From Dendrobates tinctorius (taxonomy: Eukaryota), in contig NW_027361674.1 in assembly GCF_039654945.1 (NCBI RefSeq), positions 14,012,001 through 14,076,000 on the forward strand: a DNA stretch of 64,000 bases, read 5' to 3'. The position numbers were made by a program, and so were the translations under genes. The notes below the pieces were generated by a model that saw nothing but the letters and a program-made list of their open reading frames with translations, was not told the origin of the DNA and ran no database searches. Within the stretch, counting starts at the first letter, position 1, and every line of letters begins with the position of its first letter. Shown here piece after piece: positions 4,961 to 62,376 of the stretch.

Positions 4961-5423
4961 AAGTCCTTTAGCCAAATGTTAGTATTGATTGTGTCAAATC
5001 TGGAGTCTCCTTTGGTCCTCTGATGGGTCAGTCAAATTTGGATACGCTAGTCAAAAATTGAAGTAGTTTTAAGGGACTTTTGATATGGATTACTGAACTT
5101 TACTCTATTGGATCATTGGCGACCAACTCCCAGCACCTTCTAGATTAGCTAATAGAACTTGACACAGGTCAGTATATTTGTGCAGTGACTTTTCCTGGTA
5201 CTACAGCTGTAGCCCCTTCAATCAGTTGAATGATGGGGGTGCCGGGAGTCAGACTCCTATTAATGTGATAAGGGTTTTTCTATCCAAAACATTAGACGGC
5301 TGTTGGCTGAACAATGCTTTGGCTGATCATATGGCCGACAACCATCGCAGCCATCTCTCCTGTACATAGGAGAGCTTGTTTGGCCGAGTGTTCCTGTGAG
5401 AAAGCCGTCGGGTGAGACGTATG

Positions 5424-5828
5424 TGTAAGCAGGTAGCAGGATGCAGTGACACAGGAGGCAGAGCAAGGGTTAACAAGATGTAACAATTTAATATAACAAG
5501 GTGTTCACTCCTCGCAGGTAGGTTAATGGTTAAAGGAGGGATAATAGGGATAACAGATGTAAGGCAATAACAGTCCAATGACGGAAATTATCGTGTCCTG
5601 TATGCTCCTCTGCAGCAGATGATCCCGCAGGGGGGTTGTAGAACTGGCAGTGGCCAGGTGATAACCTCAGAGGGGTCCTTCAAACGATGATTCGTCTTCT
5701 GGTGGCAGCGGTCGGTCAAGAGGTCGGTTCAGCTCTTCATTTATTCCCCCAGGCAACAAGGGAGGCAGTCTCAACAGTTCTGGACCCAGCTTGGTACAGG
5801 TATCCACAGTCCAGTCTTCCACCATACT
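5424..5828 (-). repeat. Element A 3' LTR (internally deleted)
   Basis: Aligns to 19359-20109 with a ~350-bp gap; minus-strand polypurine tract adjacent at ~5829-5840. Confidence 0.8.
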
Positions 5829-5839
5829 CTCCCCCTCTC

Positions 5840-7976
5840 CATAAGCTCGCCATTCCACGGGCGAGCGTTCTTGCAGCAGGCCTTGACACTCCTCCATCTC
5901 TCGAATGATCCGCTGCCAAGTAAATTGGTCTTGTTCATAATGGTTGGAAGGTATTCCAGCTGTTGTTCGTTCTGTGCGGCGTATGTCAGATTGGGCAGTT
6001 GAGGACGGGGATGCGTCCGGGTTCGGTGGAGCAACCATATCGGGAGTTTCAGGTTCTTGCACTTCCCCTGCGCCAGTGGGTAACGGACTGTCCAGATCTG
6101 AAGGTAAGGCAGGTTCTTCTTCAATACAATCGAAGGTCACTGGAGTGGATACCTTGGGAACACTTGGCGCTCTTCCTTCTCTTTCAGGATCTCATGACAG
6201 GCAAGGACATAACATGCTTCGATGAACTACTCGGGTAGGGTAGGGGCCCCTTCTTCTCCCTCAGGCTGGACTTCATAGTCGGGTCCATCAGTTCCAATTC
6301 GGCGTTTCACCCGGTACGGAGTTTGCTCCCATTAATACTCTAACTCGCCTCGAGGTCGCTTGTCTCGCACCAATAATCGGTCCCCAGCCTTGAGAGCTGT
6401 CCCTTGCAGGGGTGTCATCTCATGGTGCTCAAGTTCACGAAACCTGGTCTGTACTAGTCGAGGCAGAGTCTGCAAGCGATGTCAATGTTCACGGACCCAG
6501 GTGTACACCGCCGTACATGGGTAGTCCTCCTCTGGGTCCATCTCCAGCTTGGCAATCTCTCGTCCCTTTCGGCCGAACAGCAGGGTGTATGGCGTGTATC
6601 AAGTTGTACTGTGCACTCGGTTGTTGTACACCCAGACCAACTCAGCTACATACTCATGCCAACGGACTTTTGTGTCTTCCTCCAACGTTCTCAACATCCG
6701 AATCAACATCCGGTTGAAACATTCACAGGCTCCATTCCACTGTGGATGGTAAGCTGTCATCCTGGACTTTTCAATCCGATACAGGTGGTAAAGCTCTTCT
6801 ATCACTCGACCCTAAAAGCAGGCACCTTGATCAGAATGGATCCTTTTTGGGCATCCATACACCTGGATGAAATCTCGACAGATGGCCTGTGCAGCTGACT
6901 CAGCTGTCTGATCCCAGGTTGGGGTCACTACAGCGAACTTATTGAAATGATTGGTCATCACAAGAAAATGTTAATATCTAAGATCAGCAGAACCCACGGT
7001 CAAGTAGTTGATCATAAGCAGTTCCAAGGGAGCGGAGGTCACAATGGTCTGCATTGGAACTCTCTGTTCTGGAGGTTTAGCCAATTCATAGCTTCGACAC
7101 TGTTAACAGGACTCTTCCACTGCAGTCTTCAACCGGCGATGAGGGACCAGCTTCTGCAACAATGGAAATGTCTTCTCTAGGCCGAAGTGATCCCCTCTTA
7201 CATGACCTTCTATGGTCACCTCATTGATCAGTTTTTCGGGGAGCACCACTTGCCAGGTGATGCCCAATTCTCAGACCAACTGCACCTTCCGATACAGCAA
7301 ACCATCTTCCAGTTGAAGCCTCTCCTATTGTTGGAGAATCTACAGCATCCCTCAGGGTAGGGCATCTTGCTCACTCTGGCTGGGGAGTTGTTTTAGGACC
7401 ACCCATTGTCTCAACTGAGCAAGTTCCCTGTCTTCCTGCTGAAGCCACACCCAGCCATCTCGAGATCATCCCAACAGGTGTTTTCCCAACGCCTCTTCGA
7501 CCTGTTCCTGAGTCGCCGCCAACGTTCTGCCGAGGTTCTGGAACCCAGGGATCTATTCTGCCTCCAACTCTTCATCTTGGTCCCGGCCAGGTTCGCTTGT
7601 GAGTCACTCTGGACCGGGCGTTGGCATGTGTATTCTCAGCTCCTTTTCCGTATGCGGTTTTGTATTGATATTTTGCCATACAGGCCACCCATTGTTGCTT
7701 CAAAGCCCCCAGTTTCACATTTTCTAGGTGGGCTAGAGTTTTGTTGTCAGTGCGTACCAAGACTTTGGATCCCGACAGATACTCGGCAAACTTCTCATCG
7801 CCCACACTAACGCCAGTAACTCCAGCTTAGAAGAACTATAGTTGTCCGGGTTCCATTCTGAGTCGTGGAGAGATCGGCTCACTCATTCCTTTCTGTCCTG
7901 TATCTGGGACAATACATCCCCTAATCCCTGAAGACTTCCATCGGTATGAAGGATGAAAGGTTGAGAGAAGTCGGCA
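5840..7976 (-). pseudogene. Element A RNase H and integrase remnants
   Basis: AYADFSQPFILHTDGSLQGLG; KFAEYLSGSKVLVRTDNK; MTAYHPQWNGACECFNRMLIRML; multiple stops and frameshifts. Confidence 0.85.
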
Positions 7977-7981
7977 TAGGC

Positions 7982-8769
7982 TGTTGTGAGTTCATTTTCC
8001 CCTTCACTACGGAGGCCCGAGGAACTCCCTCTTCTGGTAAAGAAAGGCAGTGAGCCTGATTATCAAACACCTGAGGCTGATGATGATGACTGGCTGAGTG
8101 GAGTTACTGACTGGATATAAGGCTGCCGACGCCCTTCTGCCCTGCGGGTGATTTCTCTGTGGGATCCTTGGAGACCAGTCTGAATTCCTGCTCCTCTAAA
8201 GCTAAGTTTGCTGCTCGGCTTTTTGCATTTGTGCTTTGACTTTGTTTTGCTTTGTTTTTCTGTATTTCTGCCATTCCCTGCTGGGGTGTGCTGAATTCCT
8301 TTAGCTCTGTCTTCTGAAAATACCTGAGTGCTGATTTAGTTTTTGAAGCCTAGCTGCTTCAGGGCCTTTTTCATATCAGCTTGTTGGCTTATGTCTTTGA
8401 TAGGGTTTTGGCAGATTGCAGACAGCAGCCTTCCTGTCCTTTCCTATCTAGGTAGTTTTGGGCCCCGGCTTTGCTCAGTCTATCTTTCTTTCTGTGTTAG
8501 CGTTTTCATCTTGCTTCACCGTCATTATATGTTGGGGGCTGCCTATTGCTTTGGGGTCTGCTCTGGGGCAGTTTAGATTTCCCCTTTCTTTCTTTAGGCC
8601 TATTTAATTCTCCGGCTGTGGTCTAGGGCATCGTAGGAACCCCCCACGGCTACTGCTAGTTGTGTTGATAGGTTCAGGGGTCTGCAATCTGATAGTTGCC
8701 AACTTCTCTGGTTTTCTGGACTTAGCTTGTATTTCTGTTTTTGCCTCCTACGGTGACTCTATCATAACA
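7982..8769 (+). repeat. Element B 5' LTR
   Basis: 788 bp; TATAA at 8116-8120; direct repeat of 15437-16232. Confidence 0.95.
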
Positions 8770-8780
8770 GAATCACCCGC
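8770..8780 (+). promoter_or_regulatory. Self-priming primer-binding site of element B
   Basis: GAATCACCCGC lacks the TGG tRNA signature and is complementary to GCGGGTGATTT (8144-8154), 28 nt after the TATA start. Confidence 0.8.
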
Positions 8781-8908
8781 CATACCGCAGATCCTAGGGT
8801 ACTCAATAGCAGGAAAGAATTGTAAAAAAAAAAAAAAAAAAAAAAAAGTGTGTATATTTTTTTCCTCTATATCTCTGAGGCCGTAGGGGGAATTTTTTTT
8901 TTCTCTCA

Positions 8909-10915
8909 ATGGAGATAAAGCAATTGTCTGATCGTGTGGAGCAGCTCGCTGCGGAAGTGCGGGGAATTTCCGCCTACCTTGCTCATTCACATGCTGCTGA
9001 ACCAAAGATTCCTACACCTGATGTATTTTTTGGGGATCGGTCTAAATTTTTGAATTTCAAAAATAATTGTAAATTATTTTTTGCCTTGAAGCCTAACTCC
9101 TCAGGGAGCTCCGCGCAGCAGGTTAAAATTGTCATCTCTTTGCTGCGTGGCGATCCCCAGGATTGGGCGTTTTCTTTGAAACCAGATGATCCTATTCTGA
9201 CTAATGTGAACGCATTTTTTCAGGCCTTGGGGTTGTTGTATGACGAACCTAATGCCATTGATCAGGCTGAAAAGACCCTGCTGGCATTGAACCAGGGTCG
9301 TGATTCTGCAGAATTGTACTGTCAAAAATTCCGAAAGTGGGCAGTACTTACTACCTGGAATGATAATGCCTTGGCTGCTCTCTTTCGGAAGGGGTTGTCA
9401 GAAGCCGTAAAAGATACTATGGTGGGATTTCCTGTTCCCTCTGGTCTTGACGATTCTATGTCATTAGCCATTCAGGTTGATCGGCGTTTGCGCGAACGCA
9501 AAGCTGCACGAGAGGTGTTGCCACCTGTTGAACAAATGTCTGAACCTATGCAATGTGATAGAGTTTTTTCCAGAGAGCAGCGTCAGGAGTTCAGAAGGCG
9601 TAATAAGTTGTGTTTTTTCTGTGGAGATGCCTCGCATATTATTTCTGTCTGTCCTAAACTAGAGAAACGCTTTGCACACACGTTTTCTGTTGGAGGTGTT
9701 CAACCTAAGTTTCTTCTGGCTATTACTCTGATCTGCTCCCTGTCCACATTTTCTGCTAAGGCTTTTGTGGATTCGGGAGCAGCCCTAAACCTAATGGACT
9801 TGGATTTTGCTAAACGTTGTGGATTTCCGATGACACCTCTGCAGACGCCTATCCCTTTGAGGGGGATTGATGCTACTCCTTTGGCTAAAAATAAACCTCA
9901 GTTTTGGACCCAGGTGGTAATGCGGGTCGCCCCAGACCATCAAGAAAATTGCAGATTTTTGGTGTTGCATAATCTGCATGATACTATTGTTCTGGGGTTT
10001 CCCTGGTTACAAATTCATAATCCAGTTTTGGATTGGAAATCTGTGTCTGTGGTGAGTTGGGGTTGTCGGTGTGCCTTTAGTGAGGCTCCGGTGTTTTCCA
10101 CCTCTCCTCAGTCGCATGATGTTCCTGATTATTTGGCGGACTTTTATGATGTATTTAGTGAGAATGAGTCTGCGTCTCTGCCTCCTCATAGGAGTTATGA
10201 CTGTGCAATTGAACTGAGCCCGGGGTGTAAATTTCCCAAGGGTCGGCTCTTCAATTTATCTGTACCCGAGCACGAGGCAATGCGATCCTATATTAAGGAG
10301 GCGTTGGAGAAGGGTCATATTAGACCATCCTCGTCACCCTTAGGTGCCGGTTTTTTTTTTGTAGCCAAAAAGGATGGATCATTAAGACTTTGTATTGATT
10401 ATCGTGCCCTCAACAAAATTACTGTTAAATATCAGTATCCGTTACCCCTGATTTCTGATCTATTCTCCAGAGTTAAAGGTGCTTGCTGGTTTACCAAGCT
10501 TGACCTCAGGGGGGCGTATAATCTTATTCGCATTAAGCATGGGGATGAATGGAAGACGGCGTTTAATACTCCGGAGGGACATTTTGAGTACCTGGTGATG
10601 CCTTTTGGGCTCACTAATGCCCCTTCTGTCTTCCAGTGCTTCATGAACGATATTTTCCGAGATTTTGTCGATAAATTTTTGATTATCTATCTGGATGATA
10701 TTTTGATCTTCTCCAAGGATTGGGATTCTCATGTGGAACATATTCGGACTGTGTTCCGGATCTTGAGGGAGAATTCCCTGTATGTCAAAGGATCTAAATG
10801 CCTTTTTGGAGTACAGAGGATTTCTTTATGGGATTTATTTTGTCCCCGTCAACTATTGAAATGGACCCGGCCAAGGTACAGGCCATTTACGACTGGGTTC
10901 AGCCCACTTCTTTGA
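8909..10915 (+). CDS. Element B Gag-protease-RT polyprotein, N-terminal part (frameshift at ~10825)
   Basis: Zinc knuckle [14 protein letters not shown]; protease FVDSGA; [13 protein letters not shown] and YLDD. Confidence 0.92.
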
Positions 10916-11319
10916 AGGCCCTCCAGAAGTTTTTGGGTTTTGCTAATTTTTATCGGAAATTTATAGCAAAATTTTCTAGTATTGCCAAGCCATTGACTGA
11001 TTTGACTAAGAAGGGTGCTGATGTGTTAAATTGGTCTCCGGAGGCTGTTTCTTCCTTTCAGGAGCTGAAGCGAAGATTCACCTCCGCCCCGGTTTTGCGG
11101 CAACCTGATGTCTCACTTCCATTCCAGGTAGAGGTGGATGCTTCTGAGATTGGTGCAGGAGCTGTTTTGTCCCAAAAGGATCCTGTAACATCTAAAATGA
11201 ATCCCTGTGCTTTCTTTTCCCGAAAGTTCTCTCCATCTGAACGTAACTATGATGTGGGGAATAGGGAACTGTTGGCCATGAAATGGGCATTTGAGGAGTG
11301 GAGACATTGGTTGGAGGGA
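10828..11319 (+). CDS. Element B RT C-terminus and RNase H (interrupted by element C)
   Basis: [50 protein letters not shown]. Confidence 0.88.
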
Positions 11320-11479
11320 TGTCACGTCCGCCATGTCTGCCATGTCTGTTTGTCTCAAGAACTCCTGGAGCGATGTGCATGCGCATGTTTTGTCTGCTGT
11401 CCTGCATGTTCGCTAGAGCTGTGTGCAGACTCACCTCATGTCTGAGCTGCAGGATCCCTGCGTTTCTGCTCTGCCTTCT

Positions 11480-11720
11480 GTGATCTTCTCGTCATGTCTG
11501 GAGTCCTTGATCATGTGATGTTTCTTAAGATCCTGCACTGTCTGGTTCTGCAATCATCTCGTCATGTCTAGAATCCCGGATCATGTGTTCTTCCTAGGAT
11601 CCTGCACTGGTTGGTTCGGTGATCATCTCGTCATGTCTGAAACCCTGATCATGTGACGTTTCCTAAGATCCTGCACTGTCTGGTTCTGCTATCATCTCGT
11701 CATGTCTAGAATCCCGGAAG
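11480..11720 (+). repeat. ~60-bp tandem repeat (about 4 copies) in the U3-like part of element C
   Basis: Recurring ATCATCTCGTCATGTCT...GATCATGTG and GATCCTGCACTG...TGGTTC. Confidence 0.8.
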
Positions 11721-12501
11721 TGCTCCCCTGGTCCTGACCTGGAGGAGGAGGTGCTATGCCCTATATCAGGCCGCCTCTTCCTATGCTCAGGGCCTGATTA
11801 TTGTGTTGCTTCCCTGCAAGGCTTTGGGTCTGTGGGGTTGCTCCCTCTATTCTGTGCCCTTGCACTTTGCTCTGTAGTGCGTCTCTGCACACGCTCCGTG
11901 CTCGTATTCCGCCTCTTGTCTTGTGCCATGTCTTGTGTTGTCTCTCGTGCCATGTTTGTCTTTGCCTTGCTTTGCCTTGTAGTCCTTCTGCTGTTCTTTG
12001 TCTTAGTCTGTTTTGCTATGTCTCGCCTTAGCTATGCTTTGACTTGTAGTCCTTCCTTTGTTCTCTGCCTCGCCTGTTTTGCCATGTCTTGCTTTTGCTA
12101 TGCTTTGACTTGTAGTCCTCCCTGTGTTCTCTGCCTTGCTATTCCTTGCTTTGTGTTCCTCCCTATGGTCTCAGTCTTTGCTTGCTCTGCCTCGCTCTCT
12201 CCTATGGTGCTCTGTAGTGCTCCCTGGCACACGCACCATTTCTCCTCTCCTTAGTGCTCGTTTCTTTGTCTAGTCCCAAGGTCTTCCCTTGGCCCGGCTC
12301 TGGGCTTCTGCCTACGCTCCGCTGCTAGACTCTGTCCTCGCTCTGACCTGGCTCTGTTTCTGCTTGTGTTCCTTGCCTTGTTCCCTGCCTTGTCCTTGCA
12401 TTGAACCCCGGCGTGGGTTCCCCTTGGCCGTCTCCTGTGCCGTGGTAAGTGCCACGTGTTTGTGTACAGCCGTGTGTACTGGCCAGTGTGGCGTGCCCCC
12501 T

Positions 12502-13230
12502 GCGTGGCTCCTAGCACGCAGCCCTTCCTTGTGCCCTGGCGTGGCTCCTAGCACGCACCCTGCCTTGAACCCTGGCGTGGCTCCTAGCACGCACCCTGCC
12601 TTGAACCCTGGCGTGGCTCCTAGCACGCACCCTGCCCTGAACCTGGCGTGGCTCCTAGCACGAAGGTTCCTTTGCCCCCTCCTGTGCCTTAGTCGTGCCT
12701 CGTGCTGGCGTTACAGCCGTGTGCATTGGCCAGTGAGGTGTGCGTCCCTGCGTAGCTCCTAGCACGCAGCCCTGCTCTGAACCCTGGCGTGTCTCTACAC
12801 GCACTCTGTCTTGTGCCTTGGCGTGTCTCTACACGCACTCTGTCTTGTACCTTGGCGTGTCTCTACACGCACTCTGTCTTGTACCTTGGCGTGTCTCTAC
12901 ACGCACTCTGTCTTGTACCTTGAACCTTGGCGTGTCTCTACACGCACTCTGTCTTATACCTTGTACCTTGGCGTGTCTCTACACGCACTGTCTTATTCTA
13001 TGCTTTGGCGTGGCTACACACGCACCCTGTCTCGTTTGCGAACCTTGGCGTGTCCCCTACACACGCACCTCGCTTTGAACCCTGGCGTGTCCCCTACACA
13101 CGCACCTTGCCTTGCACCTAGTCTTGAACCCTGGCGTGTCCCCTACACACGCACCTAGCCTTGGACCCTGGCGTGTCCCCTACACACGCACCTAGCCTTG
13201 GACCTTGGCGTGTTCCCTAAACACGCACCC
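12502..13230 (+). repeat. Array of 18 mostly 34-40-bp units, each with a GCGTG-loop-CACGC inverted repeat
   Basis: Units counted by eye; 16 have an intact stem; three loop classes occur in blocks. Confidence 0.9.
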
Positions 13231-13793
13231 TGCTTGGATATCTGTCGTGCCTCCTTGCCTGAACCCTGGTTTGCCTGCCGGATGCCCGGAACCTGCCGAC
13301 CGTTGCCAGAGGTCCGGAACCAGATGACTGCGGCCTGATGTCCGGAGCTGACGTCCGCAGCCTGATCCCTGGACCCTGTCGGTTTGCCAGCAGTCCGGAG
13401 TCCGATGCCATCATGCCATTACCTGTGCCTAGGCGTGCCATCTGGCACGTACCATGTTATGGACCTTGGCGTGCCCACGCGCGCACCTTGCACGTTTTGC
13501 TTGTTTTCCCTGTATGTGATCTTGTGTTATTCTAATGAAGATACCTTGCACCTACGTCTAGTCTCGTCTTGCTTCCTGCTCGTCCTTGTCGTCAGACACT
13601 CGTCTAGTGTCCCCTGAGCCGGCCGTCTGGTCCCAGCAGTCGTGGTGGCTCACCCCCTTGGTCTTGCCCCTGACACTCCCTGTATAGGGGGTGGATTCTC
13701 ACAAGGTCAGCTCGCCCTCGGTGGGTGGGTGCCACGACCCAGAGGGTCCACTCAAAAAATGGGCTCAGCAGGAGCTGAGTCCGTCACAAGGGA

Positions 13794-15575
13794 GCTAAGC
13801 ATCAAGTCGTGGTCCTCACTGACCACAAGAATTTGATTTACCTAGAGTCGGCTAAGCGCTCGAACCCTAGACAGGCTAGGTGGGCCTTGTTTTTTACACG
13901 TTTTGATTTTGTCGTTTCTTTTCTTCCTGGAACGAAGAATGTCAAGGCAGACGCCCTCTCTAGGAGCTTCTTTGCTGATTCTCCTGTGGTGACCAAGCCT
14001 GCTACCATCTTAGGCGAAGGGGTAGTTCTTTCTGCCATCTCGCCCGATTTGAGACGTGCTCTGGAAGAGTTCCAGGAGGACAAACCTGAGCGTTGTCCCA
14101 GTGGAAAGTTGTATGTTCCTGACCAGTGGAAGAAGAGAGTGATGTCTGAAGTTCATTGCTCTGCTTTGGCTGGTCATCCAGGTATTTTTGGTACTAGAGA
14201 TCTGGTGAGTCGGTTTTTTTGGTGGCCCTCCTTGTCTCGTGATGTCAGGAATTTTGTGCAGTCCTGTGGGACGTGCTCCCGGTCTAAATCGTGTTCTCGC
14301 TCTAGTGGGTTGTTGATGCCTTTGCCTGTCCCCAAGAGGCCATGGACCCATATTTCAATGGATTTCATCTCTGATATGCCTGTCTCTCAAAGGATGAGTG
14401 TTATTTGGGTGATTTGTGATAGGTTCTCTAAGATGGTTCATCTTGTACCACTCCCTAAGTTGCCGTCTTCCTCTGAGTTGGTGCCCCTGTTTTTACAACA
14501 GGTGGTTCGTTTGTACGGGATTCCTGAGAACATTGTATCTGACAGAGGAGTCCAGTTTGTGTCTAGATTTTGGAGAACTTTCTGTTCCAGGCTGGGAATT
14601 CAGTTGTCCTTCTCCTCTGCTTTTCACCCTCAGACCAATGGGCAGACAGAGAGAACAAACCAGACCTTGGAGTCATATTTGAGATGTTTTATTTCTGCTG
14701 ATCAGGATGATTGGGTTTCATTTTTGCCCTTGGCCGAATTTGCTTTAAATAATAGAGCTAGTTCTGCCACTTTGATGTCACCTTTTTTTTGTAACTTTGG
14801 GTTTCATCCTCGATTTTCTTCAGGGCAGGTGGAGCCCTCTGCCTGCCCAGGTGTTGACACTGTGGTGGAGAGAATGCACCAGATCTGGGACCAAGTGGTG
14901 GATAAGTTATCTCTCTCCCAGGAAAAGGCCCAGCGGTTTTCCAACCGACATAGGACCATTGGTCCCCAGTTTAAGGTTGGTGATATGGTGTGGTTATCAT
15001 CAAAAAATATTGCTATGAAGGTGGCTTCTCCTAAGTTTAAGCCTAGATTTATTGGACCTTACAAGATTGTGGAGATTATTAATCCGGTCTCTTTTCGTTT
15101 GGCTCTTCCTGTCACATTTAAAATCCATAATGTGTTCCATAAATCTTTGTTGAAGAGGTTTGTTGAACCTGTTGTTCCGGGGGTGGCACCTCCAGACCCT
15201 GTATTGGTTGAAGGTAACATGGAATATGAGGTAGAGAAAGTACTGGATTCCCGTCTGGCTAGACGGAGACTCCAGTATTTGGTTAAGTGGAAGGGTTATG
15301 GTCAGGAGGATAATTCCTGGGTCTCTGCCTCTGATATTCATGCCAAAAGATTGGTGCGTGCCTTTCATTGGGCTCACCCTGATCGCCCTGGTGGCGTGGT
15401 TGAGGGTTCGGTGACGCCTCCTCAAGGGGGAGGTACTGTTGTGAGTTCATTTTCCCCTTCACTACGGAGGCCCGAGGAACTCCCTCTTCTGGTAAAGAAA
15501 GGTAGTGAGCCTGATTATCAAACACCTGAGGCTGATGATGATGACTGGCTGAGTGGAGTTACTGACTGGATATAA
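13794..15575 (+). CDS. Element B RNase H end, integrase and chromodomain
   Basis: VLTDHKNL; HHCC (HCSALAGHPG...CGTC); ISMDF / VSDRG / GQTERTN; chromodomain YEVEKVLDSR...YLVKWKGYG; ORF runs into the 3' LTR. Confidence 0.93.
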   Translation, partial: AKHQVVVLTDHKNLIYLESAKRSNPRQARWALFFTRFDFVVSFLPGTKNVKADALSRSFFADSPVVTKPATILGEGVVLSAISPDLRRALEEFQEDKPERCPSGKLYVPDQWKKRVMSEVHCSALAGHPGIFGTRDLVSRFFWWPSLSRDVRNFVQSCGTCSRSKSCSRSSGLLMPLPVPKRPWTHISMDFISDMPVSQRMSVIWVICDRFSKMVHLVPLPKLPSSSELVPLFLQQVVRLYGIPENIVSDRGVQFVSRFWRTFCSRLGIQLSFSSAFHPQTNGQTERTNQTLESYLRCFISADQDDWVSFLPLAEFALNNRASSATLMSPFFCNFGFHPRFSSGQVEPSACPGVDTVVERMHQIWDQVVDKLSLSQEKAQRFSNRHRTIGPQFKVGDMVWLSSKNIAMKVASPKFKPRFIGPYKIVEIINPVSFRLALPVTFKIHNVFHKSLLKRFVEPVVPGVAPPDPVLVEGNMEYEVEKVLDSRLARRRLQYLVKWKGYGQEDNSWVSASDIHAKRLVRAFHWAHPDRPGGVVEGSVTPPQGGGTVVSSFSPSLRRPEELPLLVKKGSEPDYQTPEADDDDWLSGVTDWI

Positions 15576-16232
15576 GGCTGCTGACGCCCTTCTGCCCTGC
15601 GGGTGATTTCTCTGTGGGATCCTTGGAGACCAGTCTGAATTCCTGCTCCTCTAAAGCTAAGTTTGCTGCTCGGCTTTTTGCATTTGTGCTTTGACTTTGT
15701 TTTGCTTTGTTTTTCTGTATTTCTGCCATTCCCTGCTGGGGTGTGCTGAATTCCTTTAGCTCTGTCTTCTGAAAATACCTGAGTGCTGATTTAGTTTTTG
15801 AAGCCTAGCTGCTTCAGGGCCTTTTTCATATCAGCTTGTTGGCTTATGTCTTTGATAGGGTTTTGGCAGATTGCAGACAGCAGCCTTCCTGTCCTTTCCT
15901 ATCTAGGTAGTTTTGGGCCCCGGCTTTGCTCAGTCTATCTTTCTTTCTGTGTTAGTGTTTTCATCTTGCTTCACCGTCATTATATGTTGGGGGTTGCCTA
16001 TTGCTTTAGGGTCTGCTCTGGGGCAGTTTAGATTTCCCCTTTCTTTCTTTAGGCCTATTTAATTCTCCGGCTGTGATCGAGGGGTCTAGGGCATCGTAGG
16101 AACCCCCCACGGCTACTGCTAGTTGTGTTGATAGGTTCAGGGGTCTGCAATCTGATAGTTGCCAACTTCTCTGGTTTTCTGGACTTAGCTTGTATTTCTG
16201 TTTTTGCCTCCTACGGTGACTCTATCATAACA
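15437..16232 (+). repeat. Element B 3' LTR
   Basis: 796 bp; differs from the 5' LTR by 5 substitutions and one 8-bp indel (by eye). Confidence 0.95.
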
Positions 16233-16237
16233 TAGGC

Positions 16238-19200
16238 CAGTATGGGTGTCTCAGTCAGGGCCATCTTCAGGGCTCGACAGGCTTCTTCCTGGCTATTCCC
16301 CCACTTGATGGTCTGATTCTTCACACCAGACAGCACTCCTTTCAACAACTCCAGCAGTGGAGTGACAATGTGAGTGAAGTCTTTCACAAACTGTTGATAG
16401 TAAGCCCCAGAAAGGCCCGCACGTTCTTCACTGTTCTTGGAGTGGGCCAATCCTGTACTGCCGCTATCTTCTCACATGCAGGTCTTACTCTCTCAGCAGA
16501 CACAACATGTCCGATGTACTCAATTTGCTGGCGGAAAAGGTGGCACTTCTGAGGCTTCACTTTCAGGCCGTGCTTCTGTAGCCGACTCAACACCTGCTCC
16601 AGCCATCGGAGATGTTCCTCAAAAGTGCCTGCATAGGCAATGATGTCTTCCAGATAAATGAGGTTAGATTCAAAGTTCAGTCTCCCAAACACTGTTCTAT
16701 CAGCCGCTGAAAGGATCCAGGTGTGTTGGTAAGACCAAAGGGCATCCGGTTTAATTTGAACAACCTCATAGGCAGCATGAACGCTGTCTTCGGCTGGTTT
16801 TGCTTAGCTTTGGGCACTTGTTAATATCCACTGGCCAGATCTAATGATGAGAAGTACTTAGCTTTTCCTCAGGCCGAAAACAACTCCTCAATTCTCGGTA
16901 AGGGATAAGAGTCCCAAACTGTACAGGCAGGGTTCCGCCCTTTTTCTGAACTAGAATGATAGGGGCTGCCCACAGGATCTAACTCTCCCATATGACCGCA
17001 CTTTGCTACATGTGCGCCAACATTTCTTTCATCTCCTGGTACATTTGCGGCGGGATCTGTCGACAACGTTCCCGAACTGGTGCGGCATTTCCTGTGTGCA
17101 CCCGAAATCATTGTCATGACGGGCAAAGACATCTTGGTACAGCCCCAGCATAGCTTCCACTTGTTGCACTTGTTGCACTTGCTGCGACGAGTCCCGTCAA
17201 TTCAGTCCGCATCTGTTCCAGGATCCGACGTACTTCTCTCATGATACTGGATGAAGGCTCTGATGAAATGGTGAGGGTTACAGTCCAGGGGTCTCCTTGT
17301 TTCACCGCTAACTGAACGGCCTCTGGTGGTGTCAGTTCCACCGGCATAACCAGTACTTGGGCTACTTCACTCTTGGCTGAGAGCGTGAGATCTTTCTATC
17401 TTAAAGGGGTTGTCCGGGCTTTTCACATAATCTCAGTGCATATCTGGGCTGCAGAATGCTGACAATAAGTAATTTACCTTCTGTGGCCAGTTTTCAGGGT
17501 TTCTAAGATATCAGCTCTTGTTTGTAAGAAAAACGTCCAGGGGGTGTGTGTTCTGGCATTGAAATGAGAACTGGTCGTTTCCTCCTACTCTACTAAAAAC
17601 ATGTCATCTGTAGCAACAACCCCACCCTCCATAGCAACAGGCCCTCTCCGACCACATGAAGAAGCCTATCCCTCCTCACACAGTAACAAATCCTCCCCCT
17701 CTAGCAGCCTCAGTGCAGAGAGCAGGACTACCCAGCTGCTCCTCCCCCAGACACACGTTGAACAGTGATCTATGGAAAGTGAAACTAGTGAGGAGGAAAC
17801 GACCAGTTTTAATGTCCGAGCAACGAAGAGTCCTGAAGGCAGTTGATCTAACAGGGTGTGCTCTATCTGGACTTTCACTCCTTCAAGGGGTGTACAGGCT
17901 TGCAAGGGCAATGTGAGCACAGTCTGGCCAGGCGGTAAAATGAGCTTGGCAGCGGCTGGAACGACCACTTTTCACAGGACTTTTCCTTCTCTCGATGTTT
18001 CTTGAGCCTGGGCTACCCGTATTAGTTGCTGGAACACCTTTCTTTGGGGGGTGAGAGGGCTACATCGATTGAGAAAAGCATCTGGGACTCATTGACTAGG
18101 ATGGTCCCGAGTTCCTTCAGCACATTCATCCCTAGCGTCACTGTAGGGCCATTGCCAGGGTCTCCAGCGGTCAGCACTACTCTTTTTCGGCCCACATTTT
18201 TGCCACACACGGTAATTCGCATCCAGACCACCCCTGTGACCGGGATGGATAATTGGTTGGCCGCTGTCAGCTTGAACATTGGGCCCCATTCAGGCTGCAT
18301 TGCCCCAGAAAAGTGACGTCTGAAATAAGTTTCTGGCATGGTAGTCACTTGGGAACAGGTATCAACTAAGCAACGGACTGCTCGACCATCCATTTCAGCC
18401 CATACAAGGGGGCACAGGGAAACTAAATTTGCAGGACTTCCTTCTCTCTTTCTTGGCTGCTCAGGCTCCGGGTAGCATCCCCCAGCCACGGAACTCACTA
18501 ATTTAACGGTCGACGGGCAAGTGGTCTCCCTCGCCGTGCGCATCCTCGAGCAATATGTCTAGTTTCTCCGCACCTAAAACAAATCGTCTGTCTCTCTGTG
18601 CAAGATTGTTCCGTTTCCTGATGGGGCTCGGGTTCGGTTCTGCCTCCGGAGGGGCTTGGGATCACTATGGGTTTCCTTCTTAAGTCGGACCACTCTTCCT
18701 GCATGTCCTGGATTTCCTTCTGGATTTCTCTCACTCAACCTGGTTCAGCTGAGGACAGAGCGGATACCTCCTTGCTCCGGACCTTCTTCACCGAGGCTGC
18801 CATCCCTAGCTCTTGCTCTCGCGCACTCAATTCAGCACTCCCGCAGGGCTTGAGTAAGCAGCGCATCCCTATGACATGCCATTAGTTGGTCCCTAAAAAT
18901 TACATTAGGGGGCCCCACACCCACATCATCCCGCTTAATGATCGTGGCGTGGATCTCCTACAGTGTGTTCATGTATTGGGTCACACACTCTCCCCTTTGC
19001 TAATCAAGCACATTCACAATTCACCGATATCCATGGGATCCTCATGCATCTCCTCCAAGATCTTTAACACTTTAGTAAAGGTATTCTGCTCGTATGGGGG
19101 TCGGAACATGACAGAACACCTGGCTTCCCCATCTATGGCCATCACAGCAATCTCTGCCTGCATAGCAGGGGTCATGGGGTGCATCCTTAGCCTGCCTCTA

Positions 19201-19340
19201 ACTCGCTTGGACCAGTTCCATAACAGTGAATTGCTCCCTGTAAACTTTGGGAGATTGCTGAGCATGGCCACCAGCGGTAAGCTGGCCCTTGGAACTCCCA
19301 CGGTCACTTGGTCTGCTACCTCGGTGCTTGTGGACTGCAT
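16238..19340 (-). pseudogene. Element A gag, protease and RT remnants
   Basis: Knuckle CFRCGETRHIARGC; protease LVDTCSQVT; DSYPLPRIEE; IYLEDII; KCHLFRQQIEYIGHVVS. Confidence 0.88.
17405..17808. mobile_element. Kolobok/T2-type MITE fragment inside element A
   Basis: TTAA-AGGGGTTGTCC terminus; internal inverted repeat AACTGGTCGTTTCCTCCT / AGGAGGAAACGACCAGTT; right TIR absent. Confidence 0.6.
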
Positions 19341-19356
19341 CCTGCCGACTACGCCA
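19339..19356 (-). promoter_or_regulatory. Primer-binding site complementary to the tRNA-Ser 3' end
   Basis: TGGCGTAGTCGGCAGGAT, 2 nt from the LTR; matches vertebrate tRNA-Ser ...ATCCTGCCGACTACG-CCA as recalled. Confidence 0.88.
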
Positions 19357-19358
19357 AG

Positions 19359-20109
19359 TGTAAGCAGGTAGCGAGATGCAGTGACAGACAGGAGGCAGAG
19401 TAAGGGTTAACAAAATGTAACAATTTAATATAATAAGGTGTTCACTCCTCACAGGGAGGTTAATGGTTAAAGGAGGGATAATAGGGATAACAGATGTAAG
19501 GCAATAACTGTCCGATTGAAGAAATTATCGTGTCCTGTATGATCCTCTGCAGCAGATGATCCCGCAGGGGGATTGTAGAACCGGCAGCGGCCGGGTGATA
19601 ACCTCAGAGGGGGTCCTTCAAACGTTGATCCGTCTTCTGGCGGCAACAATCTGTCTCCGGTACCTTCCGCTGAGCCCCTAGTCCATATGCACGTGTGGCC
19701 GAAGCAAACAAGGCCGCAGCTTTATCCAAGTCCCATGTGAATCGGTCAATGTTCTCTGGCAAGGAAGGCCGCCGGTATATGTCCGGTACCCGCCCTTCTC
19801 TACTCTGCACGTGCACAGTACTCACAGTCATCTTGGTCTCTCACAGTCACTCTGGTAGTACTGGGAGCCGGCAGGCACAGACAGTCGCAGCGCTGGTGCT
19901 CGAGGGACGGAGCACACTGCTAGGCCTGCCACGCAGTACTTGTTCTCGCCAAACTGCCTGCGGCTGCACGCGCTTTGCTTTTTAAGGTGCTCCTCCTACC
20001 TGGGTCAAGAGGTCGGTCCAGCTCTTCATTTCTTTCCCCAGGCAACAAGCCTCAATGGTTCCGGACCCGGCTCGGTGCAGGTACCCGCGGTCCGGTCTTC
20101 CTCATTACA
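19359..20109 (-). repeat. Element A 5' LTR
   Basis: 751 bp; TGTAA/TTACA ends; adjacent PBS and TSD. Confidence 0.85.
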
Positions 20110-23795: not shown

Positions 23796-24812
23796 GTCAT
23801 TGTGACAAACATATATATGTATTTATATTTCACAGAGTTCTTCATAGCAGAATAGCCGCTAATTAAATTGCCGGCTTCTATCAAATCATTCCCCAACCCG
23901 ACATGAAATGACACATGGTTTACATTCAGTAAAGCATTTCATTTCATGTTTTTTAATATGTCCCTGACTAATAATTAGATGAGCGTTTGTGTGCAAAATT
24001 TGGGAGTTGTAGTTGTTATTTTAAGGGGTTAATTCGTTGTTAAAAAATGTGTGGGCTTCCCATTGCCCTGTAGCGATGGCGAATGGGTTAATCTAACAAA
24101 GGGTTAATGTCACCATTCGATTGTAAGGTGACATTAACCCTTTGTTATATTAACCCATTCGCCACCGCTACAGGGCAATGGGAAGCCCACGCATTTTTTA
24201 ACAATGAATTAACCCCTTAAAATAACAACTACAACTCCCAAATTTTGCACACAAACGCTCATCTAATTATTAGTCAGGGACATATTAAAAAACATGAAAT
24301 GAAATGCTTTACTGAATGTAAACCATGTGTCACTTCATGTCGGGTTGGGGAATGATTTGACAGAAGTCGGCAATTTAATTAGCGGCTATTCTGCTATNNN
24401 NNNNNNNNNNNNNNNNNNNNNNNNNNNNNNNNNNNNNNNNNNNNNNNNNNNNNNNNNNNNNNNNNNNNNNNNNNNNNNNNNNNNNNNNNNNNNNNNNNNN
24501 NNNNNNNNNNNNNNNNNNNNNNNNNNNNNNNNNNNNNNNNNNNNNNNNNNNNNNNNNNNNNNNNNNNNNNNATTATTTCATTTCTGTTATAAACCCTGTC
24601 ATAGGGCTCCATTATATGTCCATTTTGCAAGGCGGCAAGAAAATCTCGCCATACGGATTCCATACGGATTACATACGGATGCTGACATGCGCAAAATACG
24701 CGACCACACCTTGCTTACGGATGACATACGGAGCACTATTTAGGGGTCTTTCATCCGTATTACGCATGTAAAATACTGACCGTATTTTGTGTCGGTTAGT
24801 GTGACCCCGGCC
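23379..24812. mobile_element. PIF/Harbinger non-autonomous element with a giant internal palindrome
   Basis: TIR GGCCGGGGTCACACT / AGTGTGACCCCGGCC; TAA TSD; palindrome 23844-24397; (TA)n at ~23727-23792. Confidence 0.85.
24398..24571. other. Assembly gap (N run)
   Basis: 174 N, at the position of the expected right palindrome arm end and (TA)n tract. Confidence 0.99.
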
Positions 24813-28386: not shown

Positions 28387-28543
28387 CTGCATAGTGGTCA
28401 AACACCGTTGGCACATACTGCTCAGGGAACGCATCATTGGCATAACTCATCACCAGACAAGTTTTTCCAACCGCACCATCGCCAACCACCACACACTTCA
28501 GCATCCTCTTCCCACTGCTGTCATTTTCGGCTCTTTTATCCAT
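28387..28543 (-). CDS. RHOJ: Rho-family GTPase RhoJ (TCL)-like, coding exon 1
   Basis: [52 protein letters not shown]; P-loop plus the RhoJ/RhoQ-specific MSYANDAFP...FDHYA; good Kozak GACATGG; phase-1 donor G|GTAAG at 28386; charged N-terminal extension favours RHOJ over RHOQ. Confidence 0.85.
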
Positions 28544-38884: not shown

Positions 38885-41800
38885 TGTCATGATCACGTGT
38901 GTCTGGACGCAGATGTTTCCGCATGGCGAACCCATGTGACACACGTGACCCTGGATACACCGCCTCCAGTGGGGCGAATTTAAATAATAAAACGTGCAGG
39001 TGGATACGCCGCCTCCACCTGGCGAATTTAGGTATTACTCGTTATACATACAATAATCAAATAATAAAGGGGGAACCTGGGAAACTTTAACAATGGTGGG
39101 CCCTGCAATAGGGAAAAGGGAATTGGAGACCTCCTGAGCTCCCCTGAGCCAGTGTCCCTGCACTCCTAACGTTCCCTATGCCGGTTTCGCACCGGGCGCC
39201 GCACGCGTACCTCAACGCCCTTGCTCACCCTGACCCTAAACCCTCACTAGGGAATGGGTCGGTGCGGAGACTAATCCCACCACTGCACTAATAACACACA
39301 TGAGGAAAGAGACAATACAGGGGAAACACCACTTAGCTTTGCTCTGTTGCATGCGCTCCTAGCAACAGAGCCCTCCACCTGAGTGCATCTTCTCCTCCAC
39401 CTGGATCCATCACCATAACAGGATCCTTCACCTTAGTGCAGCCTTGGAGCAGAATCCAACACCAGTTGCAGCTGCTTAGAACCAGAGTCCCAAGGATGAG
39501 TTCAGCTGCTGACACGAAGTCGAGCATGCTTGAATCCAGCTCAGCGGCCAAGTCCCACATGGTGAGTGCCACTCTCCATAGTCGCCACTCCACCAGCCCA
39601 TGCAGACACTTCCCGCTGACACCATCACTGCGACTCCACCACGCCATGCCAGCCCTTCGTCCAGACACCATAGCTGCAACACGTCCCCCCTGGCTAAGCT
39701 GCGCAGGACTCCTCACCAGCTCCATCCTTCATCCAGGCTCTCCCAAAACAGAGTGAACACAACTCACAATATCACAGGCAGTGATTGCACACCTCTAGCA
39801 CACCTTTATAGGGTGTCACCCCTAATACCTAATTAAGTGCACAAAAACCCAAAGTGCAATACCAAAACCACCACCGGGGACAGTCAAGACACCTTGGAAC
39901 TTTCCAAAGTAAAAAAAAGTTCACCCAGTGATTTAAAACTGTCAGATCACTTCAGATCATGACACTACCCCCTCCTTAATGAGGGGCCTCTGGACCCTCA
40001 AGACCACCCCTCATTAGGGAAACACCTACAGCGGGGATGCCCAGACCCTGAGTTCACCCCACCATTACCTGACACTTCAGGTTTATGACAAACGCACCGC
40101 TGGTATTGGCAATACATGTTCATTTTGGAGGCACCACTCATCTCCACAGCGCCGACCTGGGGAACGAGATTATGTATGTGTATGTATGCTAAGAGCTGAT
40201 CAGACTCCACAACACATTTCCAAGATGTTTTTTGGTGGGACCCATACATGCTCGTTCACACACAGGTCCGGACCTGAACGTTTATTCCACACATACATTT
40301 GTCATTTTTTTGGTGAACTCACTCTGGACTTGACAACAAAGGCGTCCCCCTGTGTCACCACACTCACACCCCCACTATTCACCAAGGGATCACCACCCTC
40401 CAACCCTCTTCACCATGAGGTCTGCGCCCCCCAGGGTTGGTTTAATGGCGAGGGTTGAGATTTGTCCCTACTCCCCCGCAGCACACCAGCTGCTCACACC
40501 AGGAGGAGAAGGAACGCATATGGAGGAAATATACACTCACTGGCCGCCTCCACACGGCCAGGAGGGGCGGCCTCCACGGTGGTATTTGAAGATTCGGCGC
40601 AAACCCCGTGGACTCTACATCAGTCTGCTCATCACTGGAACGCACCCCTTCACCTCGGGGAACACCAAGCAGCTCCGTGGGGCACCATTCCTCCCACCTG
40701 CCTGGGTACGCCCACGTGCACGAGCAAGTCCCGCTCCCCAGCAGCGACTCCAGGGGCTTTTGCCAGACCCGCAATTTGCCAAAGCCGCCATTTTTTTTTT
40801 CTCTGGTTATCCGAGCAGAGGCCCCAGACCGCGACAACCGCCGCTGCAGCGGCTCCAAACACCTTGCCGCTCCCCACTCACCCCAGTGAGGCCCGGCAGC
40901 AACAACTCAGCGGTCTCCACACGGCCAAAGCGCACCAGAAAAAAAAACTGTATGGCCTGTGATAATGTCATGGTCACGTGTGTCAGGACGCAGATGATGC
41001 CGCAAGGCGAACCCATAACACACGTGACCCTGGATACACCGCCTCCAGTGGGGCGCATTTAAATAATAAAAACGTGCAGGTGGATACGCCGCCTCCACCT
41101 GGCGAATTTAGGTATTACACGTTATACATACAATATCTGGAAACACCGCCTCCAGTAAGGCGCATTTAAATAATAAAGGGGGGAACCTGGGTAACTTTAA
41201 CAATGGTGGGCCCTGCAATAGGGAAAAGGGAATTGGAGACCTCCTGAGCTCCCCTGAGCCAGTGTCCCTGCACTCCTAACGTTCCCTATGCCGGTTTCGC
41301 ACCGGGCGCCGCACACGTACCTCAACGCCCTTGCTCACCCTGACCCTAAACCCTCACTAGGGAATGGGTCGGTGCGAAGACTAATCCCACCACTGCACTA
41401 ATAACACACATGAGGAAAGAGACAATACAGGGGAAACACCACTTAGCTTTGCTCTGTTGCGTGCGCTCCTAGCAACAGAGCCCTCCACCTGAGTGCATCT
41501 TCTCCTCCACCTGGATCCATCACCATAACAGGATCCTTCACCTTAGTGCAGCCTTGGAGCAGAGTCCAACACCAGTTGCAGCTGCTTAGAACCAGAGTCC
41601 CAAGGATGAGTTCAGCTGCTGACACGAAGTCGAGCATGCTTGAGTCCAGCTCAGCGGCCAAGTCCCACATGGTGAGTGCCACTCTCCATAGTCGCCACTC
41701 CACCAGCCCATGCAGACACTTCCCGCTGACACCATCACTGCGACTCCACCACGCCATGCCAGCCCTTCATCCAGACACCATAGCTGCAACACGTCCCCCC

Positions 41801-42067
41801 TGGCTAAGCTGCGCAGGACTCATCACCAGCTCCATCCAGGCTCTCCCAAAACAGAGTGAACACAACTCACAATATCACAGGCAGTGATTGCACACCTCTA
41901 GCACACCTTTATAGGGTGTCACCCCTAATACCTAATTAAGTGCACAAAAACCCAAAGTGCAATACCAAAACCACCACCGGGGACAGTCAAGACACCTTGG
42001 AACTTTCCAAAGTAAAAAAAAGTTCACCCAGTGATTTAAAACTGTCAGATCACTTCAGATCATGACA
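38885..42067 (-). mobile_element. Element E: non-autonomous LTR retroelement (1.1-kb LTRs, 1.0-kb non-coding interior) inserted in the RT of element D
   Basis: LTRs 38885-39964 and 40966-42067 (TGTCATG...CATGACA); minus-strand PPT AAGGAGGGGGTAG at 39965-39977; imperfect TSD GAGA/GAGG; splits KLNE|VSKFDAYPMP. Confidence 0.92.
40955..40964 (-). promoter_or_regulatory. Self-priming PBS of element E
   Basis: TATCACAGGC is complementary to the predicted transcript start GCCTGTGATA (41882-41873), 31 nt after TATAAA (41913-41908). Confidence 0.78.
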
Positions 42068-55080: not shown

Positions 55081-55302
55081 GGCTGGAGTCACACACAACG
55101 AATAATAAATCAGTCCCATTTTAACGGTCCGAAATCGCACAAAGGTATCTTAACCAGTGATGCGTTTTTGAAGCGATTTTTCTTCATTGATGCGATTTTA
55201 ATCGCATGTAAGGATCCGTTTGACATCCGTGAAAATGGACATATAATGGAGCCCAATGACAGGTTTCCCCACACAAACTAATTAATAGTTCTAGACACTA
55301 TA

Positions 55303-55335
<33 letters not shown>

Positions 55336-55905
55336 TTTATACATGTCATAGAGACACATTTATACATATATTTGACATTCATACAGTTCATCATAGCAGA
55401 ATAGCCGCAGAAACATTTGCCGGCTTTTGTATAATTATGCTCCTGCCCGACATGAAATGTCACATGGTTTACATATAGTTAACCATTTCATTTCATGATT
55501 TTTTTGTAATGTCTATCACTATTAATTAGATGAGTGTTTGTGGGTAAAATTATGGAGTTGTAGGGGTTAATTTAAGGGGTTAATTCGTTGTATTAAATTG
55601 CAGGGACTCCTGCTGACGTCACTGAGGCTGCAGGGAGTCCCCGTAATTTAATACAACGAACTAACCCCTTAAATTAACCCCTACAACTCCATAATTTTAC
55701 CCACAAACACTCATCTAATTAATAGTGATAGACATTACAAAAAAATCATGAAATGAAATGGTTAACTATATGTAAACCATGTGACATTTCATGTCGGGCA
55801 GGAGCATAATTATACAAAAGCCGGCAAATGTTTCTGCGGCTATTCTGCTATGATGAACTGTATGAATGTCAAATATATGTATAAATGTGTCTCTATGACA
55901 TGTAT

Positions 55906-55946
<41 letters not shown>

Positions 55947-56300
55947 TGTGTCTAGATATAATCATTCTTTCTTTATTTAACCGGTCTCTGTGATTTTACT
56001 GTATTGGAATAAAGAATTGCCGGCTTTTGCTAAAGGACACCGGGTGCGATTTAATCGCAACTCACACATCTAGTCCGTTTTTAGTCCCATTTTTTCTCGC
56101 CCCCATAGACTTGCATTGTCGAATCCGATCCGAAAATCGGTGACGATCGCAGCATGCTGCGATTGTCTCGGTAAGAAGATCGGATGCGATAAAAAATCGC
56201 ATGATGGGAGCTGCCCCATAGAATAACATGGGTTCGAATGCAATGCGATTTTTTTATCGCATTGCATTCGTCCGTTTTATTCGCCAGTGTGACCCCGGCC
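55081..56300. mobile_element. Harbinger non-autonomous element with a giant palindrome (relative of 23379-24812, opposite orientation)
   Basis: GGCTGGAGTCACAC / GTGTGACCCCGGCC; TAA TSD; palindrome ~55290-55956 gives mirror-image ORFs on both strands. Confidence 0.87.
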
Positions 56301-60608: not shown

Positions 60609-60612
60609 TTAA

Positions 60613-62376
60613 CCCCTTAGTGACAGAGCCAGTTTGCAGCTTAATGACCAGGCCAATTTTTACAATTCTGACCACTGTCCCTTTATGAGGTTATAACTCT
60701 GGAATGCTTCAATGGATCCCGCTGATTCTGAGACTGTTTTTCGTGACATATTGTACTTCATGTTAGTGGTAAAATTTCTTCGATAAGTCTTGTTTATTTA
60801 TGAAAAAAACGGAAATATGGCGAAAATTTTGAAAATTTTGCAGTTTTAAAACATTAAATTTTTATGCCCGTAAATCAGAGAGATGTGTCACACAAATTTC
60901 TTAATAAATAACATTTCCCACATGTTTACTTTACATCAGCACAATTTTGGAAGCAAAATTTTTTTTTGTTAGGAAGTTATAAGGGTTAAAAGTTGACCAG
61001 CGATTTCTCATTTTTACAACAAAATTTACAAAACCATTTTTTTTAGAGACCACATCATATTTAAAGTCATTTTGAGGGGTGTACATGACAGAAAATACCC
61101 AAAAGTGACAGCATTCTAAAAACTAGACCCCTCAAGGTGCTCAAAGAAGTTTATTAACCCTTTACGTGCTTCACAGGAACTAAAGCAATGTGGAAGAAAA
61201 AAATTAACATTTAACTTTTTTTTGCAAAAAATTTACTTCAGACCCAATTTTTTTTATTTTCACAAGTGTTAAAAGAGAAAATCAACCACAAAATTTGTTG
61301 TACAATTTCTCCTGAATACGCCGATACCCCATATGTGGGGGTAAACCACTTTTTCAGCACACGGCAGAGCTCGCAAGGGATGGAGCGCCGTTTGACTTTT
61401 TCAGCGCAGAATTGGCTGGAATTGAGATCAGATGCCATGTTGCGTTCGGAGAGCCCTTAATGCCTAAACAGTGGAAACCTCCAACAAGTGACCCCATTTT
61501 GGAATCTAGACCCCTTAAGGAACTTATATAGATGTGTGGTGAGCACTTTGAACCTTCAAGTGCTTCACAGAAGTTTATAACGTAGAGCCGTGAAAATAAA
61601 AAAAATATTTTTTTTTTCCACAAAAATGATCTTTTCGCCCCCAAATTTTTATTTTTACAGGGGTAACAGGAGAAATCATACCCCCACAGTTATTGTGTGA
61701 TTTGTCCTGAGTACGCTGATACCCCATATGTGGGGGGGGAACCACTGTTTGGGTGCATGGGAGAGCTTGGAAGGGAAGGAGTGCCATTTTGGAATGCAGA
61801 CTTTGATGGAATGGTCTGAGGGCATCATGTTGCGTTTGCAGAGCCCCTGATGGGCCTAAACAGTGGAAACCCCCCTGACAAGTGACCCCATTTTGGAACT
61901 TAGACCCCCCAAGGAGCTATCTAGATGTGTGGTGAGCACTTTGAACCCCCAAGCGCTTCACAGAAGTTTATAAACGCAGAGCCGTGAAAATAAAAAGTCT
62001 TTTTTATTTCCACAAAAGTGATTTTTTTAGACCCCCAAAGTTGATAAATAGTGGAAACCCCTCAATTCTTGCTCCAACCCTAACCCCAACACACCCCTAA
62101 CCCTAATCCCAACCGTAACCCTAATCTCAATCCTAATCCCTAATCATAATTCTAACCCTAATCCTAGTTCGCCCTAACCCTAGCCCTAGCCCTAACCCTA
62201 GCCTTCACCCTAGCCCTAGCCCTAACCCTAGCCCTAACCCTAACCCTAATGGAAAACTGAAAAAAAAAATATTTTCTTTATTTCGTTATGTTGGCCTAAC
62301 TAAGGGGGTGAGAAACGGGGGGGTTATGTACTATTTTTTTTATTTTGATCACGGCGTATCGGCGGTTGCTAAGGGG
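60613..62376. mobile_element. piggyBac-type non-autonomous element 2 (inverted relative of element 1)
   Basis: CCCCTTAGTGAC / GTTGCTAAGGGG TIRs; TTAA on both sides; (CCCTAA/CCCTAG)n at ~62077-62249. Confidence 0.82.

Follow-up and report, generated by a model that had tools for sequence, protein, structure and literature searches.

A young hairpin minisatellite carried by a solo LTR of unusual length

Why would some 20 short hairpins, nearly invariant in their stems and variable in their loops, stand in tandem within a single LTR? The window analysed here, a stretch of 64,000 nucleotides (64 kb), carries such an array together with an exon of a host gene, and raises the question of which of the two the array belongs to. 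The array proves real: it is a young hairpin minisatellite carried by a mobile element, within an LTR of unusual length. It most likely belongs to the retrotransposon and not to the host gene, for which it is most likely not a dioxin-receptor switch; the hairpins most likely have a role in the RNA of the element itself or are simply put up with there.

The array lies in an insert at 11320-13788 (plus strand) that is the solo LTR of an LTR retrotransposon. Its 2469 bp have TG...CA ends, are flanked by matching 5-bp target-site duplications (AGGGA, 11315-11319 and 13789-13793) and contain no internal region, no open frame of known kind and no terminal direct repeat; the "giant LTR" of an earlier reading, made from the letters of the window (the sequence-only reading), is thus borne out. 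The empty site is present in eight contigs of sequencing run X11, which join 11314 to 13789 across the insert. A miniature non-autonomous element was rejected because the insert lacks terminal repeats. A retrozyme or small-RNA-derived LTR was rejected as well: the solo LTR has no ribozyme, tRNA or 5S motif, Rfam gave no match up to E 1 between window positions 5000 and 20000, and ARAGORN found no tRNA gene. The family is high-copy and varied, with 11,364 contigs of one run matching the stretch, most of them less than 99% alike. At least half of the stretch's words occur in 16 of the 24 listed runs, all of organism A, and 9-12% in four runs of organism B. Coverage in run X17 (organism B) falls to a depth of 0.8-27 over the TCTCTA block versus 365-1208 beside it, although missing cover proves nothing; one contig of this run joins 12617 to 13187, with one side short. 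A- and C-type units are present in a run of a second organism, too.

The solo LTR breaks pol, within RNase H, of a host chromodomain Ty3/Gypsy element (7982-16232, plus strand, target duplication TAGGC). The host LTRs (7982-8769 and 15437-16232, plus strand) differ by five substitutions and one 8-bp gap in 788 bp (0.6% divergence), and the solo LTR is younger than this element because it is inserted in its RNase H. Pfam domains of the host run in the order gag-PR-RT-RNase H-integrase with a chromodomain, as in Tf1/sushi chromoviruses. Its integrase matched 16 metagenomic loci at 32-38% identity, too distant for use. The host gag-pol frame changes inside RT at 10798-10915 (ORFs 8879-10915 and 10798-11445), a second break besides the insert. 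Nesting across 5423-20101 is triple, the solo LTR sitting in the chromodomain element and this in turn in a minus-strand Gypsy element with LTR remnants at 5423-5820 and 19358-20101. Elsewhere, the window holds large near-perfect inverted repeats that resemble miniature DNA transposons (23844-24397, 55290-55956 and 59879-61338). Degenerate TTAGGG/CCCTAA tracts, at 59138 and 62076, stand on either side of the third of these.

Along its plus strand, the solo LTR comprises a 69-bp tandem repeat of 3.5 copies without a hairpin in the presumed U3 (11476-11715), a TATA-like box (TATAT at 11762) followed 28 nt on by the presumed start and self-primer segment (11762-11800), U-rich tandem repeats of 66 and 41 bp, also without a hairpin (11948-12172), the hairpin array, and a long terminal stem (13639-13738) with a terminal hairpin (13759-13784). 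No other part of the LTR folds as well as the segment 13639-13784 (z -3.6, last 170 nt), which is also the part most common to related families. The poly(A) words AATAAA, ATTAAA, AGTAAA and AATACA are absent from both strands of the solo LTR, so R and U5 are not separable. The array does lie downstream of the TATA box, as the earlier reading had it; its placement in a transcribed leader depends on the presumed start site. From that site to the LTR end, the leader would measure about 2 kb (1999 nt), versus 626 nt in the host element and about 915 nt in the other neighbor.

How such a leader may be primed is suggested by two other elements of the window, in which the first transcribed bases are predicted to pair with bases past the 5′ LTR, the self-priming described for the Tf1/sushi group (PMC6317226, PMC7175516 and PMC4600332). 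The host primer-binding site (8770-8780, plus strand) is complementary to 8144-8154, 28 nt past the host TATA, at the presumed start site. The host bases past the 5′ LTR find their best duplex in the whole LTR at 8142-8155, and this duplex forms in the minimum-free-energy fold of the leader. Likewise, the first 10 leader bases of an element at 38885-42067 (minus strand) fold onto a site past its 5′ LTR. The solo LTR, whose own primer-binding site does not lie in the window, has the same TATA-plus-28 layout and the TGAT word of these elements; because of both it probably belongs to the Tf1/sushi self-priming group, by resemblance only. The self-priming setting behind the earlier proposal, a 5′ end that can reach a primer-binding site, holds up in that sister elements in the window self-prime, and if priming does span a leader of about 2 kb, the first cDNA would be of about that length. 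The host LTR self-primes without any such array.

The element at 38885-42067 is non-coding, has a 1-kb interior between LTRs of 1.1 kb that are 94.8% alike, lies inside the RT of another Gypsy element and looks like a non-autonomous self-priming element. Near their 3′ ends its LTRs carry short hairpin repeats (about 38960-39040 and 41030-41165), two copies in one LTR and three in the other, so that the number differs within one element; the loop is constant and the stem shows a C-G/G-C switch. A likeness of 16/17 between the A unit and 41467-41483, noticed by eye, was not recovered by BLAST and is taken as chance.

A pattern search of the 64-kb window found 16 strict GCGTG-N(6-9)-CACGC units at 12502-13226, and four more units carry one stem change (12646, 12750, 13433 and 13469). 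With 16 strict and 20 total units, the 18 stem-loops counted previously fall within range, and the loops varying in blocks and the extended stems are likewise present as described. Loop types are GCTCCTAG (six units), TCTCTA (six), GCTACA (one), TCCCCTACA (four) and TTCCCTAAA (one), together with CCATCTGG and CCCACG. Block 1 (12484-12663, plus strand) has five units with loop GCTCCTAG at a 36-nt period and folds poorly in context. Block 2 (12732-13233, plus strand) has 13, at periods of 34-41: one A-type, six TCTCTA, one GCTACA, four TCCCCTACA and one TTCCCTAAA. Two diverged units (13433 and 13469, within 13415-13491, plus strand) keep five pairs via G-U wobbles, and C-G pairs lengthen their stems. 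Stem-less edge units stand at 12411, 12491, 13245 and 13269, and 13245-13410 (plus strand) holds degenerate units, array spacers without the GCGTG/CACGC stem, plus a 28-bp repeat. In this repeat, adjoining the array at 13280-13410, a CCGG hairpin and the palindrome TCCGGA, present three times, are self-complementary and might serve as contacts between dimer partners. Outside the array, the window contains no inverted pair of the form RCGTG-N3..12-CACGY, and a two-unit array pattern had no match in metagenome or viral contigs.

Tandem Repeats Finder assigns periods of 36, 34/41 and 37 to the blocks, which implies that the number of units reflects duplication of a few founders; the units descend from about 6-7 types and have been homogenised. 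As tandem duplicates, the 18-20 units are not independent evidence, and the stem of a single unit is mildly unusual: taking the four main types in turn, 15%, 1%, 3% and 1% of 2000 shuffles attain the 5-7 perfect pairs. A coding role was rejected, since none of 128 candidates from a comparison of the translation with a protein collection reached E 0.01, and is unlikely also because unit periods are 34, 36, 37 and 41 (range 34-41).

Are the stems constrained? We ran parsimony on a neighbor-joining tree of the units, with P values that are optimistic since units share descent and have been homogenised. Across 14 core units, a set without the six block-edge or diverged ones, the 10 stem columns underwent no change versus 21 changes in 18 flank columns (binomial P 0.0001); wider sets gave 2 versus 31 changes (16 units) and 4 versus 59 (all 20). 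All 10 stem columns are invariant versus 7 of 18 flank columns (Fisher P 0.0016), or 8/10 versus 5/18 when two diverged units are included (P 0.016). A profile built from the spacers alone hit 23 sites; 15 were known units and a further hit was a known unit read in a shifted register. Few stem-less units were therefore missed inside the blocks, although the stem-less relatives at 12411, 12491, 13245 and 13269 show that the effect of ascertainment, while limited, is real. Among the read variants listed (40 of 275 substitution and 12 of 82 indel entries), eight from other copies fall in the blocks, six in spacers, two in loops and none in a stem (P 0.09). Of the four stem changes, the two in the diverged units leave a sense-strand G-U pair in place, whereas the units at 12646 and 12750 break a core pair. 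Pairs 6 and 7, the loop-side extensions, switch between T-A and C-G and stay complementary. The evidence that the stems are constrained is moderate, weakened by shared descent, and the conserved-stem hairpins of the sequence-only reading hold up to that extent.

The same reading had called the CpGs largely undecayed, and all 40 stem arms do retain theirs. This fits youth: P for retention is about 0.05 at the oldest possible age and higher if the insert is younger, with a host-LTR decay rate taken from only two events. The CpG observed/expected ratio is 0.71; the remainder of the 3′ LTR has 0.66, and pol has 0.60. We therefore rejected CpG protection as proof of function.

Folding predictions lend the array little distinction. 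Isolated units fold as RNA at -7.8 to -12.4 kcal/mol (one broken unit, -4.7). In a 2-kb context, stem probabilities average about 0.5, and 9-14 of 20 units exceed 0.5 depending on the span limit; most A-type units are unfolded, and three or four of these fall below 0.2. Sense-strand windows of 120 nt over the array give z from +1.9 to -2.5, and a 30-nt span limit gives -2.2 for the array on both strands and +1.1 for block 1. By these models, the array folds barely better than shuffled sequence.

The reading that we favor, with a confidence somewhat short of even, is turnover of a hairpin unit driven by reverse transcriptase, with the stems kept on the element's RNA. The starting point would be a 34-37-nt unit with one GC-rich hairpin in the putatively transcribed R/U5 of a very long LTR, which reverse transcriptase would have to copy in each cycle. 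Pausing at hairpins and re-annealing one unit out of register could then add, delete and homogenise units in blocks. The block structure itself establishes a blockwise origin; the enzyme we infer. Template switching by reverse transcriptase deletes and duplicates direct repeats, more so when they bear stem-loops, according to PMC3187697, and such switching would account for the blockwise turnover. Loops would change through slippage in CT/AC and C runs, and spacers through C/T changes. The stem would stay near-invariant, including a preceding TG and a following A, through which pairing can continue past a bulge.

Weak selection acting on the sense RNA most likely holds these stems, for a putative function of the element. 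Retroviral direct repeats with stem-loops were deleted at 5-47% in a study cited by PMC3187697, and persistence of the array therefore suggests a counterforce. The stems may offer Gag or nucleocapsid a double-stranded handle that is repeated and tolerates changes in dose; alternatively, G-rich words of the pyrimidine-rich 2-kb leader may be locked into local folds, sparing self-priming. If the stems are selected, recognition must be via the stem, unlike in the loop-read retroviral hairpins. A fuller version, in which a self-primed leader of about 2 kb presents some 20 sequence-fixed stems with free loops as a multivalent RNA element read by Gag, is unlikely. If it were true, the CGT/ACG core in the terminal stems of three families would be a clade-wide recognition motif, multimerised here. 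The three LTR families of the window do each end in a long stem with CGT:ACG pairing (13639-13738, 8629-8757 and 40972-41034); the folding z of their last 170 nt is -3.6, -0.8 and -2.9, a post hoc comparison of three cases.

Close behind the favored reading ranks a neutral origin, which we hold to be a serious contender while not preferring it: one hairpin-bearing unit would have been amplified by slippage like the other repeats of the LTR, and apparent stem conservation would reflect less mutation of paired bases or arm-to-arm correction by template switching, together with few founders. Four hairpin-free tandem families (69, 66, 41 and 28 bp) lie in the same solo LTR, which thus amplifies repeats regardless of hairpins, and the array arose, like them, by tandem duplication. 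Loop changes such as the insertions at 12939 and 13013 are CT/AC slippage, folding is near shuffle level and equal on both strands, and degenerate edge units exist. Template switching can also perfect imperfect inverted repeats (PMC3820800 and PMC8604942) and is promoted by hairpins (PMC3187697). However, arm correction should sometimes copy a mutation to both arms, and none of the 20 units shows a compensatory change in the five core pairs. The contrast between stem and flank change rates and the presence of the same stem in a second organism also argue against neutrality.

A DNA-level explanation is improbable on our assessment. In it, the array is a cluster for a factor that reads GCGTG, AhR/ARNT or HIF, and would work as an enhancer from a position 3′ of the start site that the LTR itself provides. 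HIF reads RCGTG. The letters fit AhR, with the core GCGTG on both strands and T/G at -2: the more than 30 cores noted earlier in about 750 bp are borne out by 34 GCGTG/CACGC cores in the 730 bp at 12502-13230, and KNGCGTG matches number 33 (17 TNGCGTG on the plus strand and 16 KNGCGTG on the minus strand). The core is also invariant in sequence and not merely in pairing, and minus-strand cores have T at -1, which is favorable according to PMC10682972. However, a double-stranded motif leaves the paired loop-side extensions and the arm spacing of 6-9 nt unexplained. The same paper reports that GCGTG cores mostly lack bound AhR, open chromatin included, and AhR is reported to prefer unmethylated elements (PMC8524661). 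Further against it, the insert is younger than a 0.6%-divergent host element, sits in a triple nest and is one copy of a family to which 11,364 contigs of one run match. Of the AhR proposal, then, the motif matches stand, and its extension to a regulatory cluster fits poorly with a young, high-copy, antisense insert.

Still less probable is compaction as the purpose of the hairpins, by which the 5′ end of the 2-kb leader would reach the primer-binding site, an idea from the sequence-only reading that modeling does not uphold. In the native fold, base 12 and the LTR end are 19 steps apart versus 31.9 ± 8.0 with shuffled arrays, only 1 of 20 being as short, and the leader would be about three times as long as that of the host element. 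Yet of the roughly 759 nt in the blocks, hairpins take up 349 and unpaired spacer 410, so that about 410 unpaired bases are added, and the loop lengthened, even with every hairpin formed. In all 20 shuffles the ends remain 17-48 steps apart and stability does not suffer (-616 ± 8 versus -612 kcal/mol natively), and it is the terminal stem rather than the array that forms the strongest structure. In these models the leader ends come close even without the array, and the hairpins would at most limit its cost.

Last, AhR-type control of the host gene is very nearly dismissed. The first coding exon of this TC10-like gene (28388-28543, minus strand), in which RHOJ and RHOQ are not told apart, probably places the insert in intron 1, antisense and about 15 kb downstream, and ten second-exon motifs found no match in the window.

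The array says little about the host gene. For the element it may say more, as little is known of the RNA signals for packaging and priming in vertebrate Tf1/sushi elements. A family with a fourfold longer LTR and a natural series of hairpin copy numbers would make stem constraint and unit turnover measurable from genome copies alone. Should the array be neutral, it would show clearly how reverse transcription builds up a minisatellite and spreads clusters of GCGTG over a genome.

Among known systems, AhR/ARNT response element clusters share the GCGTG core on both strands and T/G at -2; here, in contrast, the predicted cores are the arms of hairpins in a young mobile element. Retroviral LTR enhancer repeats sit in U3. 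The array resembles such direct repeats in being short and in a copy number that varies by template switching of reverse transcriptase (PMC3187697); it differs from these 50-75-bp enhancer repeats in lying downstream of the TATA box and in that each unit is an inverted repeat. With LTRs of Tf1/sushi (V-clade) chromoviruses, the solo LTR shares TG...CA ends, a 5-bp target duplication, a T-rich body and the TATA-plus-28-nt layout. The Sushi LTR training set of PMC3601003 has a mean of 572 bp versus 2469 bp here, and its model has AATAAA near the 3′ end, whereas the solo LTR has none on either strand. Our search, which subscription papers mostly lay beyond and which included no repeat database, so that the family may be catalogued, turned up no published array of hairpins in an LTR of the Tf1/sushi type. 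Retrozymes and Helenus, Ajax and Cassandra also carry a structured motif within the LTR; the solo LTR differs from them in having no Rfam match up to E 1 and no tRNA gene, and in not being miniature. In retroviral leader hairpins, the loop is usually the conserved, recognised part. The array shares with these packaging, dimer and TAR hairpins the form of short stable hairpins in a 5′ leader, but here the loops vary and are not self-complementary as a class, and it is the stem that is constant.
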